Source: a virus
Lineage: Duplodnaviria > Caudoviricetes
DNA: 48,392 nucleotides
IMG/VR virus record: IMGVR_UViG_3300035042_000091
Coordinates: 1-48,392 of that record
Reading direction: 5' to 3' (one strand)
The number at the start of each line of letters is the position of its first letter. The first letter of the stretch is position 1. Positions 32,236 through 42,076 of the stretch are shown here, one piece after another. A program made the position numbers and the translations under genes. The notes beneath the pieces were generated by a model. The model was not told the DNA's origin. It ran no database searches and worked only from the letters and a program-made list of their open reading frames with translations.

Positions 32236-32430
32236 CTAACCTGCAGCTGATTGTTTGTATTCTCCCTCTTGCTTCTCCTTAGCTTTGATACGGTTATAAA
32301 TTATCTCTGCCAGCGGCCGGTTAAGTTCCTCCCTGGTAATGTCTGGCACTTCATCTGTAATCTCTTCCTTGATAACCTCTCCGGTTTCCCGGTCATGAGT
32401 AACACATTTAATTCTTAGCAATAGATTCAC
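32236..32430 (-). CDS. Hypothetical protein
   Basis: GGAGG SD; early operon. Confidence 0.5.
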   Translation of the reverse strand: MNLLLRIKCVTHDRETGEVIKEEITDEVPDITREELNRPLAEIIYNRIKAKEKQEGEYKQSAAG

Positions 32431-33611: not shown

Positions 33612-34016
33612 TTGGTAACTTTTGCAGAAAGACTTAAACAACTTAGAAAAGAAAATGGGATAACAATGGAGGATTTAGCCGAAGAAATTGGAACTACAAA
33701 ATCTACAATTTCTAGATATGAAAATAATAAAAGAGAACCCAAAAAACATTTTATAGAAAAAACTGCTGAATATTTTAATGTATCTACAGATTATCTTCTT
33801 GGTCTAAAAAATGAAAAATCATCAGCCGATAAAATTAAAAAAGCTATCTCTGATGATCCAGAACTCCATGATGTTTGGGATAAGATATCCAAAAGAGAAA
33901 ACCTTCAACTGCTGTTTAAGCAGACTAAGAATTTAGATGATAGTTCAATTAGACAAATAATTAGAATTATTAAAGCTATTGAAGAAGATGAGGAAAAAAG
34001 ATACAATGGTGGATAG
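33612..34016 (+). CDS. Immunity repressor (ImmR/CI-like XRE HTH)
   Basis: RLKQLR...STISRYE...VSTDYLLG; no S24 peptidase domain visible. Confidence 0.9.
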   Translation: MVTFAERLKQLRKENGITMEDLAEEIGTTKSTISRYENNKREPKKHFIEKTAEYFNVSTDYLLGLKNEKSSADKIKKAISDDPELHDVWDKISKRENLQLLFKQTKNLDDSSIRQIIRIIKAIEEDEEKRYNGG

Positions 34017-34027
34017 GAGGGGCCAGT

Positions 34028-34360
34028 ATGAAAGAGAAAAAGAATCGTACTGCTCTCCAGCGTACATATATAAATTACCAGGAGTGGGCTAGATCTAATA
34101 ATATCTATCAAAGTTTTATACCATTAAGTCCAGAGGTTTACGGATTCGTTTACCTCTCTTCTTATGATAATTACTTTATAATTATCAATCAAAATCTCAC
34201 TCTGGAGCTGCAAAAGGAGGTGTATTTGCACGAAGTAGAGCACATAATGTATGATATGCCGGAGGATGGCTATGTTATTGGCTTAGATATGCAGTACAGT
34301 CAAATGGAAAAAGCAGCAGACAATTTCGTAAAAGAGATTATTAATAATTTTTTTACTTAA
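34028..34360 (+). CDS. ImmA/IrrE-family metallopeptidase (anti-repressor)
   Basis: IIIN..L...HEVEH (HEXXH)...E..AD; adjacent to the repressor. Confidence 0.8.
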   Translation: MKEKKNRTALQRTYINYQEWARSNNIYQSFIPLSPEVYGFVYLSSYDNYFIIINQNLTLELQKEVYLHEVEHIMYDMPEDGYVIGLDMQYSQMEKAADNFVKEIINNFFT

Positions 34361-35446: not shown

Positions 35447-37003
35447 ATGAATAATACAACTGCAGCAATTTATGCACGTTTCAGTTCTAATAACCAGAGA
35501 GAGGAATCACTTGACGCTCAAATTAGAGCAGCCAAAGAATTTGCAAAAGATAATGATCTGAAAATAACTAAAATCTATACTGATAAAGCCCAATCTGCTA
35601 CCACTTCTGATCGCCCAGGCTTTTTAGAAATGATAAAAGACAGCCAGGATGATCTATTTGACAAGGTGATAGTGCATAAGCTTGACCGCTTTGCCAGAAA
35701 TAGATATGATTCAGCTGTATTCAAAAGGAAGCTCAGAGAAAATGAAGTTGAATTAATATCTGTCTTAGAAAACTTTGATGATAGTCCGGAAAGTATTATC
35801 CTGGAGTCGGTACTGGAAGGAATGAATGAGTATTATTCTGCCAACCTGGCAAGAGAAGTTAGCAAAGGGATGAAAGAAAATGCCATGCAGTGCAAGCATA
35901 ATGGCGGTTTAGCGCCTTTAGGGTTTGATGTGGCTGATGATAAGACATATAAGATTAATGAAGAGGATGCAGCTAAAGTCAGGCTTATCTTCAGAATGTA
36001 TGCTGCAGGTAATGGCTACGGTCCAATCCTCAAAAAACTTAAAGAGAAAAACTATAAAACTCAAACAGGTAGAAACTTTAGTAAACCAAGCTTACATGAT
36101 ATTTTAAGAAATGAAAAATACAGAGGTGTCTATGTATTCAATAGATCAGCCAGCAAAAAAGCTGGCAAAAGAAATCATCATAAGTCTAAGCCAGAGGAAG
36201 AGATTATTAGGATTGAAGGAGGGATGCCGAGAATAGTATCAGACAAAACATGGAGGAGGGTGCAGAGAAGAATGGATGAAAACAAAAAAGGACCAGGGGC
36301 CCACAGTGCTAAAGAAATATACTTGCTTTCAGGATTGATTGAGTGCGGAAAGTGTGGTGGTTCAATGGTAGGTAATCGTAGAATAGCTGGTAGAGATAGA
36401 ACCGTATATATGTCCTACGAATGCTCTACCAGAAAACGGACTAAGGAATGCGACATGAAGTCTATCACTAAGGAGCATGTGGAAGAGATTGTTCTTGATG
36501 ATATGGTTGAGGCCATGTTTTCTGCTGCTAAGATTGATCAACTGGCAAAAGATGTCTATAACTTTGCCAAGCAAGAAAATGAGGAAATCAATGCAGATAT
36601 AAAAAGATTTGAGAAACAGCTTAAAAATATTAATTCTAAAATTGATAATTTAACTGAAGCAGTTGCAGCTGGACTTTTCCAGCCATCTATGAAGGAAAAG
36701 TTAAATAAATTAGAAAGTGAGAAGTCTGATCTGGGATTAATGTTAAATGAAGCAAAGCTGCAGGCAGAAAAAAATCTGCCCACTAAAAGTGAAATAAAGG
36801 CAGAGCTGAAAGGTTATAGAAATATAAAAAACGAAAGTCTCAAAGCCCAAAGAAAGGCTATAAAAACTTTCGTAAAGAGTGTAATTATCTATGAAAACAA
36901 TATAAAAGTTAATTATATTGTGGATTTGACTGGTGGAGGTGGTCCGTACCTTACCCAATCCACAATTAGTTTAGCAAATTACCGGAGAAATGTCAATAAA
37001 TAA
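35447..37003 (+). CDS. Large serine recombinase (integrase)
   Basis: YARFSS catalytic motif, DRFARN, recombinase domain, CGKCG..C..C zinc ribbon and coiled coil. Confidence 0.96.
   Translation: MNNTTAAIYARFSSNNQREESLDAQIRAAKEFAKDNDLKITKIYTDKAQSATTSDRPGFLEMIKDSQDDLFDKVIVHKLDRFARNRYDSAVFKRKLRENEVELISVLENFDDSPESIILESVLEGMNEYYSANLAREVSKGMKENAMQCKHNGGLAPLGFDVADDKTYKINEEDAAKVRLIFRMYAAGNGYGPILKKLKEKNYKTQTGRNFSKPSLHDILRNEKYRGVYVFNRSASKKAGKRNHHKSKPEEEIIRIEGGMPRIVSDKTWRRVQRRMDENKKGPGAHSAKEIYLLSGLIECGKCGGSMVGNRRIAGRDRTVYMSYECSTRKRTKECDMKSITKEHVEEIVLDDMVEAMFSAAKIDQLAKDVYNFAKQENEEINADIKRFEKQLKNINSKIDNLTEAVAAGLFQPSMKEKLNKLESEKSDLGLMLNEAKLQAEKNLPTKSEIKAELKGYRNIKNESLKAQRKAIKTFVKSVIIYENNIKVNYIVDLTGGGGPYLTQSTISLANYRRNVNK
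36917..36966. other. Putative attP within the integrase 3' end
   Basis: Perfect 10-bp inverted repeat ATTGTGGATT / AATCCACAAT bounding 50 bp with central GG at 36941-36942; left arm is the reverse complement of CCACCTCCACCA. Confidence 0.7.
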
Positions 37004-37026
37004 AAAATCTCTACATTATATATAGT

Positions 37027-37053
37027 AAAAACCCCAGGCAAAAACCCGGGGTT
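37027..37053 (-). terminator. Terminator between the convergent integrase and late operon
   Basis: Minus strand AACCCCGGG-TTTTTG-CCTGGGGTT-TTT. Confidence 0.7.
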
Positions 37054-37062
37054 AAATAGTTT

Positions 37063-37131
37063 TTATTTTCTTTTCTTGATCCATCCCCAAATTACAAAAG
37101 GAATAAATGCAATTGCGGCTAACCACTCCAT
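37063..37131 (-). CDS. 22-aa hydrophobic mini-protein (not in ORF track)
   Basis: GGAGGTGG SD; MEWLAAIAFIPFVIWGWIKKRK*. Confidence 0.55.
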   Translation of the reverse strand: MEWLAAIAFIPFVIWGWIKKRK

Positions 37132-37141
37132 AAGCCACCTC

Positions 37142-37588
37142 CTAAAATTGAAAATCAAATCCAAGTATTACTCCACTATTCTCTATATTAGCAGGGACCA
37201 CATTGACCCCTGTTATTATTCCAATGTTCTTTTTATTTAATATGTCATCTATCATTTGCTTTTGAGTATCAATTAAATCTTGTAATCTGTTATTAGAATC
37301 TATTAATTTTCGATTATTTTCCTCAGCTGATTTATATAATTGCCTGTATTCCTCAACATCTTTCTCTGACTGATTATATAATTTCTTATATTCAGTTACA
37401 TCGCGCTCGGCTTCTTCATATAGCTTTTTGTACTTCTGGGCAATATCATACATATCACGATAATCTTCCAGGAGCTGATCATATTCTTCCGGAGGATCTA
37501 ACTCCTGAGCATTGACATTAACAGCTATAGGCAGCAGCAAAATCATTACTATTATAATGTAGATTAATTTTTTTCTAATAGTGATCAC
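37142..37588 (-). CDS. Secreted coiled-coil lysis-cassette protein (o-spanin-like position)
   Basis: Signal peptide ending VNA-QE, 14-aa repeats, C-terminal GFDFQF; no Cys. Confidence 0.6.
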   Translation of the reverse strand: MITIRKKLIYIIIVMILLLPIAVNVNAQELDPPEEYDQLLEDYRDMYDIAQKYKKLYEEAERDVTEYKKLYNQSEKDVEEYRQLYKSAEENNRKLIDSNNRLQDLIDTQKQMIDDILNKKNIGIITGVNVVPANIENSGVILGFDFQF

Positions 37589-39155: not shown

Positions 39156-40250
39156 TTATTCTTTTAAATCTAGTTGATTAAGTATTTCTTTATCTAGTTT
39201 ACCAATTGTTCTTTTCTTTAGATTATAACTGTTACAATGCTTTAAAATTCCTTTATAGCTTTGAACACTGGCATTTATATCATTAATATCAACCTCCCCT
39301 TCATAATAATTTTTCTGTAAATATTTCAATCTACTTTTCATTTTATTTTTAGTACTTTTCCTGAGTTTTCTGTAAGCAGGATAAGTAACATATCCACAAA
39401 AATCTATTCCTTCATTTATATTCCCCACAGTTGTTTTGTTGTTAAGTTCTAATTTTAAATAATCAGCAAGAAATATTTCTATTTCCTGCCTGATAGTATG
39501 TAATTCATTTTTGGATTTTCCTAAAATAATAAAATCATCCATATATCTAATATAATGTTTAGCCCTAAGTATATGTTTTACAAATTTATCTAAAAAATCT
39601 AAATAAATATTAGCAAACATCTGACTGGCTAGATTGCCAATAGGTATTCCAATTCCTTTTATTTTGTCCTCTTCAAAATAATGATCACCCAGATGAATAC
39701 CAAACTCACCATCATCGGTTTTGATTATCTGCCAAAGCAATCTTAAAGTATCTTTGCAATTTATTTTTCTTTTAATAATTTCAAAAAGAACTCTGTGATC
39801 TATCCGATAGAAATATTTTGCTACATCAGCTTTAAGAAAATAAGTTTCTCCTGGTTGCCTATCGAGCTTCCTCATCCAGTGCCTTAACTGATCTGCAGCA
39901 TAATGAGTCCCTTTATTTTCTCTGCAAGCACAACTATGCTCATAAAATATATTGTCGAAAATAGGGAAAATCTGTCTATATATGGCCCATTGAACTACTC
40001 GGTCCCTAAAAGGTAAAGCCATAACCAGTCTTTGCTTTGGTTCGTAAACATAAAACTGATGATATTTGCCCTGTTCATAAGTTTTGTGTATCAATTCATT
40101 CTGCAGCTGGATAAGATTGCTTTCTAACTGCCTGGTAAACTTTAAAACTTCATTTTTAAATCTTTTTTTCTTTCTTGCTTCTATATAAGCTAAATATAAA
40201 TTCTCAAAATCGTATATTTTTGGATATAAATTTCTAAATTTTTTTGGAAT
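39156..40250 (-). CDS. DGR reverse transcriptase (364 aa if started at ATT 40250)
   Basis: FRDRVVQ, GIPIGNLASQ and RYMDD motifs. The frame stays open 52 codons upstream of the track start and encodes NLYPKIYDFENLYLAY..AR. Confidence 0.95.
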   Translation of the reverse strand: MPKKFRNLYPKIYDFENLYLAYIEARKKKRFKNEVLKFTRQLESNLIQLQNELIHKTYEQGKYHQFYVYEPKQRLVMALPFRDRVVQWAIYRQIFPIFDNIFYEHSCACRENKGTHYAADQLRHWMRKLDRQPGETYFLKADVAKYFYRIDHRVLFEIIKRKINCKDTLRLLWQIIKTDDGEFGIHLGDHYFEEDKIKGIGIPIGNLASQMFANIYLDFLDKFVKHILRAKHYIRYMDDFIILGKSKNELHTIRQEIEIFLADYLKLELNNKTTVGNINEGIDFCGYVTYPAYRKLRKSTKNKMKSRLKYLQKNYYEGEVDINDINASVQSYKGILKHCNSYNLKKRTIGKLDKEILNQLDLKE

Positions 40251-40280
40251 GTTATCACCACTTTCTCTGTATTCAGGTGA

Positions 40281-40314
40281 AAAGAAAAACCCGCTCTTAT
40301 TTAGAGCAGGTTTT
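40281..40314 (-). terminator. Intrinsic terminator between TR and RT
   Basis: Minus strand AAAACCTGCTCT-AAATA-AGAGCGGGTTTT-TCTTT. Confidence 0.7.
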
Positions 40315-40493
40315 AAGGTGCCGGCCGTGACAACTTTCTATATTTCAATACTTGCTGCCTAACTGACAATTTAAATTTTTTCCTGGAGGGACAAATTTGT
40401 TTCTCAGGATGGAAGTAGGCCCCTTTATTTATGTTGCTGGCACTGGATAACAACCCAGTAGGTTGCTAACTTCTGGCCTAAAAATATAAATAG

Positions 40494-40608
40494 AGCGGAG
40501 CGGAAGCCAATGTTGTTGTTCGAGTTCGAACGCTCGTTGTTCAGGTTCAACTGAAAGACACCGGCTGTCGAGCCGTTGTTCCAGTTGCCACCACGGATCG
40601 GCAAACGC
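40494..40608 (-). repeat. DGR template repeat (TR)
   Basis: 115 bp with 26 adenines and 10 AAC codons; aligns without gaps to 41063..41177. Confidence 0.96.
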
Positions 40609-40638
40609 ATCGGCCTACTACCGAAAATTTATAAAATT

Positions 40639-40980
40639 TTATTGTTTCTTTTCTATTGTTTTCATCCAGCCGCCGATCAACTTACCTACTTCATCAAGTT
40701 TTTCGGACCAGATGCCATACTTTTTAAAAGGAAGAAATTCTAAATCTTTGGCTAATCTTATATAAGTAGTTATCAATTCTAATTGAGTATCCATTTCTCT
40801 TAATGTAGTTTTTTTATAATATTTTTTATTAGTTATGATAATTAATTTTAAAAGCTTTATCATTGCCTCTTTTATCTCTGCAGCAAAAGTATGCTTTTCG
40901 CTGCGAGGAAATTGTTTTAATGCCTGGTAACCATACTGGATCATGTCATAAGTCTTTTGATATACTATTAGATTTTCCAA
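40639..40980 (-). CDS. avd: DGR accessory variability determinant
   Basis: FPRSEK..., L..YIRLA.DL and EVGKLIGGW motifs; basic four-helix protein; TTG at 40980 after an AAGGA SD. Confidence 0.92.
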   Translation of the reverse strand: MENLIVYQKTYDMIQYGYQALKQFPRSEKHTFAAEIKEAMIKLLKLIIITNKKYYKKTTLREMDTQLELITTYIRLAKDLEFLPFKKYGIWSEKLDEVGKLIGGWMKTIEKKQ

Positions 40981-41001
40981 ATTATCATCCTTCAAGTAAT
41001 G

Positions 41002-41027
41002 TAGGGGAAGGCTATCGCCCACCCCTA
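41002..41027 (-). promoter_or_regulatory. DGR homing hairpin downstream of VR
   Basis: Minus strand TAGGGGTGGGC-GATA-GCCTTCCCCTA (GRNA loop), about 20 nt after the target stop codon. Confidence 0.75.
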
Positions 41028-41047
41028 ACAGATTTTAGAGTTCAGAT

Positions 41048-42076
41048 TTATAGAGAAACAAAAGCGGAGCGGAAGCCAATGCTGTAGCCCGAGCTCGAAC
41101 GCTCGTTGTTCAGGTGCAACTGAAAGACACCGGCTGCCGAGCCGTGGTTCCAGCGGCCACCACGGAGCGGCAAACGCTCACCGTAGTTTCTAACATAAAT
41201 ATAATCTCCGTTATATCCTGTGCCTTCCGGGAATACAGCCAAATATTTTAGTCTTTCAGGAACTGTAAAGCCAGTATCAGCGGTCATATTCTCAAAAATA
41301 TGAGAGATATATTCGCTACTTGCTTCGTCCATTACATTGTCAATTACACTATCAAGCTGTAATGTAGTGCCGTCTACATCCATATAAGCTCCGAGATCTA
41401 ACCAGCCTGTATTATCTCCAGCAGCATTACCAGTCTGAAAATCATTTTCATCATGAACCCAAATTTTACCGTCAACTAGCTTTAAGCCATCGACCCATTC
41501 ATGAACATTTCCATTTAAATCAAATATGCCTGCTAGAGTTCCATCGTGAGACCATGAAGCAGGTCCAGATCCGGTTGCTACCCTATATGTTTTGTAAGGG
41601 TCTCCACCACCATAAGTTTCTACACCTTTTTCATGCGGAGCACTTATATCCTGACCATAGTCATTGTTACCTCTGGGCTCATAACCATTTTTCCTGCACC
41701 AGAGTGCAATAGCAGCCCATTCTGCATTGGTCATAAGATGCCAGCCAGTTCCCTTAGCAAATGATGCAGCTCTCGCTGTATCAAAATTAATTGATGTTGC
41801 TGGGTCCTGATTAGGGATTGAATAAGCCCGGCTGTTCTTGATAATATTTTGATATTTTGAAATGAAAATTTCATCCTTAACCACACCGTTAACAATGAAA
41901 GCTGGATGCGGTTCGTTTGGCCAGGTGTCTACAACATCATCTAAATTAAACTTAGGCAGCCTATACATAACAGAAGGATTTCCCTGATCATCATATAGAA
42001 CTGTGTTTCTTCCTCCGGTTTGAGCTTCAACAGCTGCTCTGTAACTATCTTTTATACTAAATACAAAAGGTTCCAT
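41048..42076 (-). CDS. DGR target: Mtd-like / FGE-type C-type-lectin-fold receptor-binding protein
   Basis: HPAF, WHLMTNAEW, GIFDLNGNVHEW and RGG.W...GFR motifs; VR at the C-terminus; last tail gene. Confidence 0.9.
   Translation of the reverse strand: MEPFVFSIKDSYRAAVEAQTGGRNTVLYDDQGNPSVMYRLPKFNLDDVVDTWPNEPHPAFIVNGVVKDEIFISKYQNIIKNSRAYSIPNQDPATSINFDTARAASFAKGTGWHLMTNAEWAAIALWCRKNGYEPRGNNDYGQDISAPHEKGVETYGGGDPYKTYRVATGSGPASWSHDGTLAGIFDLNGNVHEWVDGLKLVDGKIWVHDENDFQTGNAAGDNTGWLDLGAYMDVDGTTLQLDSVIDNVMDEASSEYISHIFENMTADTGFTVPERLKYLAVFPEGTGYNGDYIYVRNYGERLPLRGGRWNHGSAAGVFQLHLNNERSSSGYSIGFRSAFVSL
41063..41177 (-). repeat. DGR variable repeat (VR)
   Basis: 11 mismatches to TR, all at TR adenines. 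Confidence 0.96.

Follow-up and report, generated by a model that had tools for sequence, protein, structure and literature searches.

Canonical serine integrases have attP outside the integrase gene, and each therefore exists as one protein form. Two phages with tyrosine recombinases are said to be built differently. Mycobacteriophage BPs reportedly carries attP in its repressor gene, the phage form of the protein bearing a C-terminal degron. Phage Mx8, reportedly described by Tojo in 1996, is said to target a tRNA gene and to make integrase isoforms, IntP and IntX, that differ in activity.

Overlap of a serine recombinase gene with an attachment site at ssrA has been known since 2011. In Dehalococcoides, the gene dsiB always overlaps the ssrA att site at its 3' end; the C-terminus of DsiB is variable when integrated, and the authors suggest full function on the circle only (PMC3146451). 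The sequence-only reading of the locus described here had credited attP-in-gene switches to tyrosine systems, a statement that needs widening, as the serine dsiB-ssrA overlap was already in print (McMurdie 2011, PMC3146451). That paper is the only one that our search on DsiB, ssrA and integrases found, and its available part yielded no conserved circle-form tail, terminator or RDF. A 2014 island database, in its accessible sections, cites Mx8 and SSV for genes that cross attP and states that serine integrases are not known to target tRNA genes (PMC4383910). The available main text of PMC10083194 makes no mention of tRNA, tmRNA or ssrA. Nothing on tail swapping was found in PMC12424338 or in the accessible portions of PMC12884075 and PMC13626063, and none of six motifs sought in one supplement of PMC12286644 was present there. 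The literature, as far as it was accessible, yielded no functional test of serine-integrase tail isoforms.

The locus analyzed here lies in a virus record of 48,392 bp, which we call the window (the whole stretch of DNA analyzed). Junction sequences confirm that attP lies inside the integrase gene, int, and that integration takes place at the 3' end of ssrA. As with DsiB, a serine recombinase acts at ssrA and the 3' end of its gene overlaps the att site, a likeness drawn from the published description (PMC3146451). Unlike the DsiB islands (ssrA-GI), as described in the available text, this is a complete tailed phage with one integrase and no second recombinase DsiA, and the six-gene DsiB module (with DsiA, RecF, ParBc and Mom homologs) is absent beside the integrase. 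DsiB islands insert midway through the T-loop with a 20-bp direct repeat, whereas here the site falls at the T-stem/acceptor-stem junction with a 13-nt block, the putative crossover centre being 11-12 nt from the CCA end.

The resemblance to Mx8, judged from partial descriptions, is that attP lies inside int and that integration into a stable-RNA gene alters the C-terminus; however, Mx8 uses a tyrosine recombinase, with another mechanism and no coiled-coil/RDF control. As in BPs, an attP inside a phage gene gives two protein forms, but here int holds the site, at a distance of 2.9 kb from the repressor, and there is no shared degron-like end. The domain order, coiled coil, ~50-bp attP and inverted distal motif are those of SPbeta SprA/SprB, LI/A118, Bxb1 and phiC31, as is a motif 5 bp nearer the centre in attB, according to the available text of PMC11722253 and PMC12286644. 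Unlike in these canonical pairs, an extra strand and helix are predicted to follow the fold, in the free phage only. Extra C-terminal strands are likewise predicted to block the RDF site in SCCmec Ccr recombinases; in Ccr they are permanent, while here they would be removable by recombination (PMC12286644, accessible part).

The attachment site and its target

The integrase and its attachment site comprise the following features.

35447..37003, + strand: large serine integrase (int), 518 aa, free-phage isoform (Pfam and Foldseek)
36917..36966, no strand: attP, 50 bp, within codons 491-507
36917..36926, + strand: left inverted-repeat arm at +15 to +24 from the centre, predicted to be a zinc-ribbon-domain motif
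36957..36966, + strand: right arm of the inverted repeat; also codes for part of Q504-S-T-I507
36941..36942, no strand: putative crossover dinucleotide, at the T-stem/acceptor-stem junction of the tmRNA (repeat centre, 5-bp motif shift, secondary-site register)
36931..36943, - strand: 13-nt block common to the ssrA 3' end; gives the acceptor-stem 3' strand and CCA after integration

Domain order, catalytic serine, coiled coil and the form of attP identify the protein as a large serine integrase. Pfam Resolvase, Recombinase and Zn_ribbon_recom follow one another in that order, all above cut-off, and the catalytic motif Y9-x-R11-x-S13-S14 is invariant in 45 of 45 integrases. The best Foldseek match is SPbeta integrase (E 1.6e-23), the fold of the model matches the SPbeta and LI integrases, and predicted helices at 360-407 and 413-442 correspond to the coiled coil inserted in the zinc-ribbon domain.

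Recomputation reproduces the 50-bp site that had been proposed from the letters alone, with its perfect 10-bp inverted repeat and its centre GG at 36941-36942. The arms are separated by 30 nt, and codon G499 opens with this GG. By itself, the repeat exceeds chance only modestly: the whole window has six such 10-mer starts, at four places, and because 23 of 2000 dinucleotide shuffles of 36800-37100 contain such a 10-bp inverted repeat, attP needs outside support. Ten of 17 attP-like loci have a symmetric run of at least 7 matches at the exact register, often with a different sequence; two others fit best one base off, and five have little symmetry. Furthermore, AATCCAC occurs at +15 to +21 in both attP arms and AACCCAC at +10 to +16 in the ssrA arm, registers that recur when 44 integrase-side arms and 33 ssrA arms are reduced to a consensus. 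In the serine integrase family, it is a rule that the attB motif sits about 5 bp closer to the centre than the attP motif (PMC11722253, available text). From these registers we infer crossover at GG 36941-36942. The pattern of the attP right arm, scanned in viral contigs, gave 0 matches.

The target is ssrA. In a related genome, L002, the integrase is 100% identical over residues 1-499 and then continues into the antisense 3' end of a tmRNA (Rfam match 76 bits, E 4.8e-30), as had been predicted for a host junction. DNA similarity between L002 and the window is 98% over 2,931 bp, the lysogeny module, and ends at 36943; little else is alike, so that L002 is a related prophage and not the window genome. 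Since L002 runs on into tmRNA, one of the two targets that had been proposed, ssrA, stands, and tRNA-Ala is ruled out for this phage. Four sequencing runs were assembled against window 36500-37400. A contig of run X8, which belongs to a different study from the two possible source runs, spans attP without differences, and in run X3 AT-rich foreign DNA joins the window just before 36931, which gives the other prophage junction. No intact attB was observed among the assembled contigs. Both junctions are thus accounted for, and restoration of the RNA 3' end upon integration is borne out by their sequences. Together, the end of L002 similarity and the X3 junction set the shared block at 13 nt; the 12-nt block noted previously is present (TGGTGGAGGTGG, found once in the window, at 36931-36942) but is one nucleotide short. 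An alternative boundary at 37004-37060 is ruled out, as the L002 and X3 junctions map to 36931-36943. ARAGORN found no tRNA or tmRNA in the window, and it also missed the truncated tmRNA of L002. No RNA run is among the 23 runs listed. Site, ssrA target, junctions and isoform swap form an architecture that we regard, on these sequences, as practically certain.

Run X3 also contains a second loose end, before window 36938. Its left arm resembles an inverted ssrA T-arm: in register, 14 of 18 positions agree with the ssrA arm, as against no more than 6 at shifts of 1-5 bases. This loose end, seen in one contig, is probably a secondary attB.

Integration parts ssrA from its own terminator, so ssrA needs another one. 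A candidate lies within int.

36825..36873, - strand: hairpin and U-run in the int coding sequence, predicted replacement terminator for ssrA (folding)

This hairpin (-19.3 kcal/mol, six U after it, z -6.5, 0 of 200 shuffles) lies 58-106 nt beyond CCA on the ssrA strand. It was missed by a stock terminator scan and found by a folding script, at 36873-36825. Counted at -12 or lower and with a T-rich tail, such hairpins lie within the final 300 antisense bases in 32 of 44 junction loci, a set that includes near-duplicates and one non-integrase row (L087); mid-gene they are present in 4 of 44, and on the sense strand in 3 of 44. It is likely, judging by its sequence and place, that the int hairpin replaces the ssrA terminator in the prophage. 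The in-gene hairpin would also explain why attP abuts int if the arrangement were one of economy, with the ssrA 3' end and terminator folded into int, the isoforms acting alike and the tail of minor consequence.

Two forms of the integrase

The part of int beyond the shared block is found in the free phage.

36944..37003, + strand: tail present in the phage only (residues 500-518); integration moves it to the far end of the prophage

The junctions indicate that on integration a conserved tail of 19 residues gives way to about 50 residues read antisense from ssrA. The predicted replacement of residues 500-518 agrees with L002, where identity ends at 499, and the two isoforms it implies both occur in public protein sets: P0128, with the phage tail, and P0124, of 549 aa with an ssrA tail, are each 498/498 identical to the window core and sit in the same 90% cluster as the window integrase. 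Far ends of related elements hold displaced copies of the tail: among 10 candidates, four carry a close family tail and four a looser one. The remaining two (L199 and L201) were set aside, since they look like chance matches.

We sorted 120 homologs by regex on tail type, which gave 35 phage-type, 52 ssrA/tRNA-type and 33 unclassified tails. Phage-type tails have 19-43 aa and the consensus [PA]-Y-x-F-K-S-T-I-x-I-x-x-Y-R-H, in which the two I are kept in 32 and 31, Y in 29 and R in 31 of the 35. The ssrA/tRNA-type tails range from 5 to 90 aa with no common length or end sequence, and 15 of 52 stop within 6 residues. For this reason a stability switch by analogy with the BPs repressor and integrase, in which one tail would mark the protein for proteolysis, fits poorly. 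A disordered prophage tail, as predicted below, could favour degradation, but the phage tail ends in RRNVNK and family ends vary beyond YRH. We consider such a degron highly improbable and the least likely of five explanations.

The tail outside attP is conserved as protein, as its codons indicate. Conservation of S-T-I proves nothing in this respect, because S-T-I overlaps the attP arm, which can account for it. In codons 508-514, outside attP, identity at codon positions 1/2/3 among 8 tails is 48/70/37%, while inside attP it is 57/58/59% for the same tails; these were picked for the family motif, which makes them circular for conservation and less so for codon use. R513 is encoded by four different codons across all 8 of the 8 tails. 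In a natural allele, the Y and R codons are changed silently and neighbouring codons change residue. The same tail ending occurs with the core inverted in 2 of 7 SPPP-type proteins and with the core in another frame in 3 of 6 LVEA-type proteins. In relatives farther away, the tail is still strand-like but YRH is lost. The variation of tails in distant relatives and the attP arm within S-T-I would suit an economy without a switch, but Y-R-H, beyond the limits of attP, persists where codons change synonymously, where the core is inverted and where the frame is another. That explanation is therefore an unlikely one.

Runs X1 and X3 contain, at window 36950-37027, a second tail allele with 9 differences, followed by other DNA after 37027. 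This allele spares both repeat arms and the Y-R residues.

The core appears to be complete without the tail. When the model is aligned by structure with solved integrases, the match mostly ends at its residues 491-499; a few partial chains align as far as 501-503. LI integrase residue 452 pairs with model residue 491 and SPbeta 533 with 493, and V492, the equivalent of SPbeta F532, is nearly invariant among relatives. Thus, residues 1-499, common to both isoforms, would make up a whole canonical integrase, and the phage tail would be an addition.

Structure models of the two isoforms differ at the tail. In the phage isoform, AlphaFold2 predicts that 501-508 form a strand (block pLDDT 83) and 510-513 a helix; residues 287-290 also become a strand here, and 283-290 are ordered, as they are in the tailed model only. 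In the prophage isoform, pLDDT is below 50 for 494-549, the last strand is shorter and there is no strand at 287-290. The pTM is low in both models (0.43 and 0.36), as expected where domains are flexibly linked. Thus, the phage tail is predicted to be folded and the modelled ssrA tail disordered.

A protein-conserved tail that is predicted to fold may act on recombination as such. By analogy with Mx8, the phage isoform could be the stronger enzyme and the prophage isoform the weaker one, so that lysogeny is stabilised, with the RDF acting on both. The tail might then steady the DNA-binding domain, as the ordering of 283-290 in the tailed model would suggest, or add DNA contacts through YRH and its basic end; both routes are conjectural. 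The host arm downstream of ssrA is without an AATCCAC/AACCCAC-type motif, and integration may therefore need extra affinity. Such a dimming of activity fits less well with a core whose canonical fold needs no tail to be complete. We see this as possible but doubtful, and place it second among the explanations.

A candidate RDF and a proposed role of the tail

Upstream of int, on the opposite strand, lies a small gene of the early operon.

32236..32430, - strand: candidate RDF, 64 aa, early operon after cro-like and anti-repressor genes

No obvious RDF gene had been recognized in the sequence-only reading. This 64-aa candidate weakens that claim. No named RDF or excisionase was found among 15 window proteins scanned in PHROGs. 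PHROG 17201, itself unnamed, matches 6 of 20 members of the candidate family. The candidate had no PDB match and no usable Atlas match, no named homolog among 44, and no match in GenBank phages; its family had no significant match near the integrase of a Moorella phage. Homologs with a D-R-K-T-G motif are found at 26 of 83 integrase loci, always upstream and on the opposite strand. Among 87 loci with at least 3 kb upstream, the candidate is present in 23, namely 20 of 48 of the tRNA/tmRNA type and 3 of 39 others; the last three look mislabelled by the tail regex. It is absent within 3-4.5 kb upstream in 28 of the 48 loci labelled tRNA/tmRNA-type. The co-occurrence is partly circular (14 of the 23 positive loci were training rows) and confounded by kinship. 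Position and co-occurrence thus make the 64-aa ORF a candidate RDF.

The lack of a named RDF or excisionase among the 15 proteins, and the loci in the clade without the candidate nearby, could mean that loss of the tail alone lets the prophage isoform excise. However, without an RDF a canonical integrase that lacks the tail should be blocked on attL x attR (PMC11722253, available text), a small conserved early-operon ORF travels with the clade, and spontaneous excision would destabilise lysogens. A switch free of any RDF, the strongest form of the directionality switch suggested in the sequence-only reading, is very unlikely in our view, though less so than a degron.

Our preferred reading, held tentatively, is that the phage tail gates RDF access and that integration uncovers the docking surface. 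Because the core is a complete canonical fold, this is the likeliest role among those weighed. An incoming phage would make a tailed integrase committed to attP x attB, and this commitment would hold even while the early operon makes the RDF candidate, the tail covering the surface where the RDF docks, at the strand that ends the core fold. Integration would remove the tail and leave the prophage integrase as a complete canonical form with a free RDF site, which could excise once induction supplies the RDF. Insertion itself would switch the enzyme from insert to excise mode.

Published work gives this gating a plausible location. In SPbeta, F532 is important for direction and is flanked by RDF residues (PMC11722253, available text). 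Most RDFs add a strand to the sheet of the zinc-ribbon/coiled-coil domain, and extra C-terminal strands could block the RDF site, a point left open in the accessible part of PMC12286644. RDF gating is consistent with a core that ends at the strand contacted by SPbeta's RDF, with an identical-core isoform pair in which a predicted strand gives way to an ssrA tail predicted to be disordered, and with an RDF candidate that travels with the integrase clade. Several points weigh against it. The place where the tail packs is inferred, and the tail may instead pair with the inter-domain linker at 287-290, as in the model. The RDF is a candidate, missing from many loci, with partly circular co-occurrence; the S-T-I part of the tail doubles as an attP arm; and distant relatives lose YRH. 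In one genome, G252, the chromosome retains an entire int with its tail, and an arm is duplicated at ssrA. Finally, an RDF-resistant integrase could re-integrate the genome after excision unless int were silenced, and the antisense promoter that might silence it is at chance level.

36968..36996, - strand: promoter-like site in the tail, 10 of 12, extended -10; would read antisense into int on the circle only

Three promoter-like sites were found versus 2.4 expected in shuffles, and the one at 36996-36968 was rejected as no better than chance.

Overall, we rank RDF gating first, then an activity dimmer, economy, an RDF-free switch and, last, a degron. A fuller picture, held with less conviction than the gating itself, is that of a widespread Bacillota integrase clade with a removable plug in the RDF site, in which recombination edits int, the location of the DNA sets direction, and 'DRKTG', an unnamed family of 50-65 residues, is the RDF. 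In this picture one gene end may serve as attP arms, tmRNA acceptor end and tmRNA terminator.

In the two isoforms, nature supplies one 499-residue core in two versions, one followed by an extra strand and one not; the att arms are mapped and an RDF candidate is at hand. This pair allows a direct test of two points left open in the available text of PMC12286644: whether added strands at the C-terminus keep the RDF from binding, and how direction is controlled in such integrases. Integrases that only integrate, or that switch themselves, could be designed by the same rule if the tail does gate the RDF. The clade's targets, ssrA and tRNA ends, are conserved single-copy sites. Database entries of the clade that derive from prophages carry the ssrA-derived tail, and screens that clone them therefore test one isoform only.

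The phage, its probable host and related elements

The window is the circular genome of a temperate myovirus. It forms one virus record, and because an open frame cut off at one end is taken up in phase at the other (323 codons in all, with one terminal stop), we take it to be circular. Its genes include those for terminase, portal, head, tail sheath and baseplate. One of its proteins falls in the same 90% cluster as a protein of Halanaerobium saccharolyticum, and the best-matching sequencing runs are oil-field, gas-well and subsurface metagenomes; on both grounds, the host genus is probably Halanaerobium.

The genes around int form a lysogeny region with two further features of note.

33612..34016, + strand: cI-like HTH repressor, first gene of the operon leading to int (context)
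37030..37053, - strand: terminator-like hairpin closing the convergent late/lysis genes

The int and lysis genes are convergent, tail to tail. The upstream neighbours of int are proteins of 308 and 110 aa without a family match and the HTH repressor. The 110-aa ORF (34028-34360, + strand), directly after the repressor, has a HEVEH motif and no match in Pfam or PHROG; presumably it is like the ImmA anti-repressor proteases.

Elsewhere, the window contains a diversity-generating retroelement (39156-42076, - strand). It comprises a reverse transcriptase (39156-40094), Avd (40639-41022), a target with an FGE-sulfatase-like fold (41048-42076) and a 115-nt repeat pair (40494-40608 and 41063-41177) with 90% identity.

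Related integrases are found beside several RNA genes. A strong match was present in 25 of 401 sampled genomes, beside a tmRNA in 15, a tRNA in 6 and neither in 4. In the 21 RNA-adjacent cases, the frame overlaps the RNA gene in 17, does not in 2 and is unreadable in 2. A single-protein scan of genome contigs gave one locus, L001, with 36% identity and a different junction.

In L048, L050, L095, L023, L180, L185 and L190-L193, the frames enter tRNA-Ala, -Leu, -Met or -Glu genes, with tRNA-Ala used by the first three. By these frames, the clade shows target switching within the serine family.

Other relatives (L011:5471, L013:5483, L019:5498 and L054:5531) are integrated in the opposite orientation, with int crossing the sense 3' end (CCTCCACCA-like, read SPPP) into downstream host DNA. 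L209 (G252:C32:4300-5500), L186 and L031 are integrated elements with an intact tailed int and attP, in which a duplicate of the left arm follows 186 nt farther on, joined to ssrA. In L024, the 3' end of int encodes a phage-type tail and about 70 further residues that by eye resemble a helix-turn-helix.

On contig C29 of genome G053, two displaced ssrA ends with different tails lie 8 kb apart (446 and 8628; L205 and L204), and their sequences mark tandem integrations at ssrA. The annotated integrase of Moorella phage MCACPph1 (OR602863.1, L210) has 44% identity and an ssrA-antisense tail, which is the prophage isoform.
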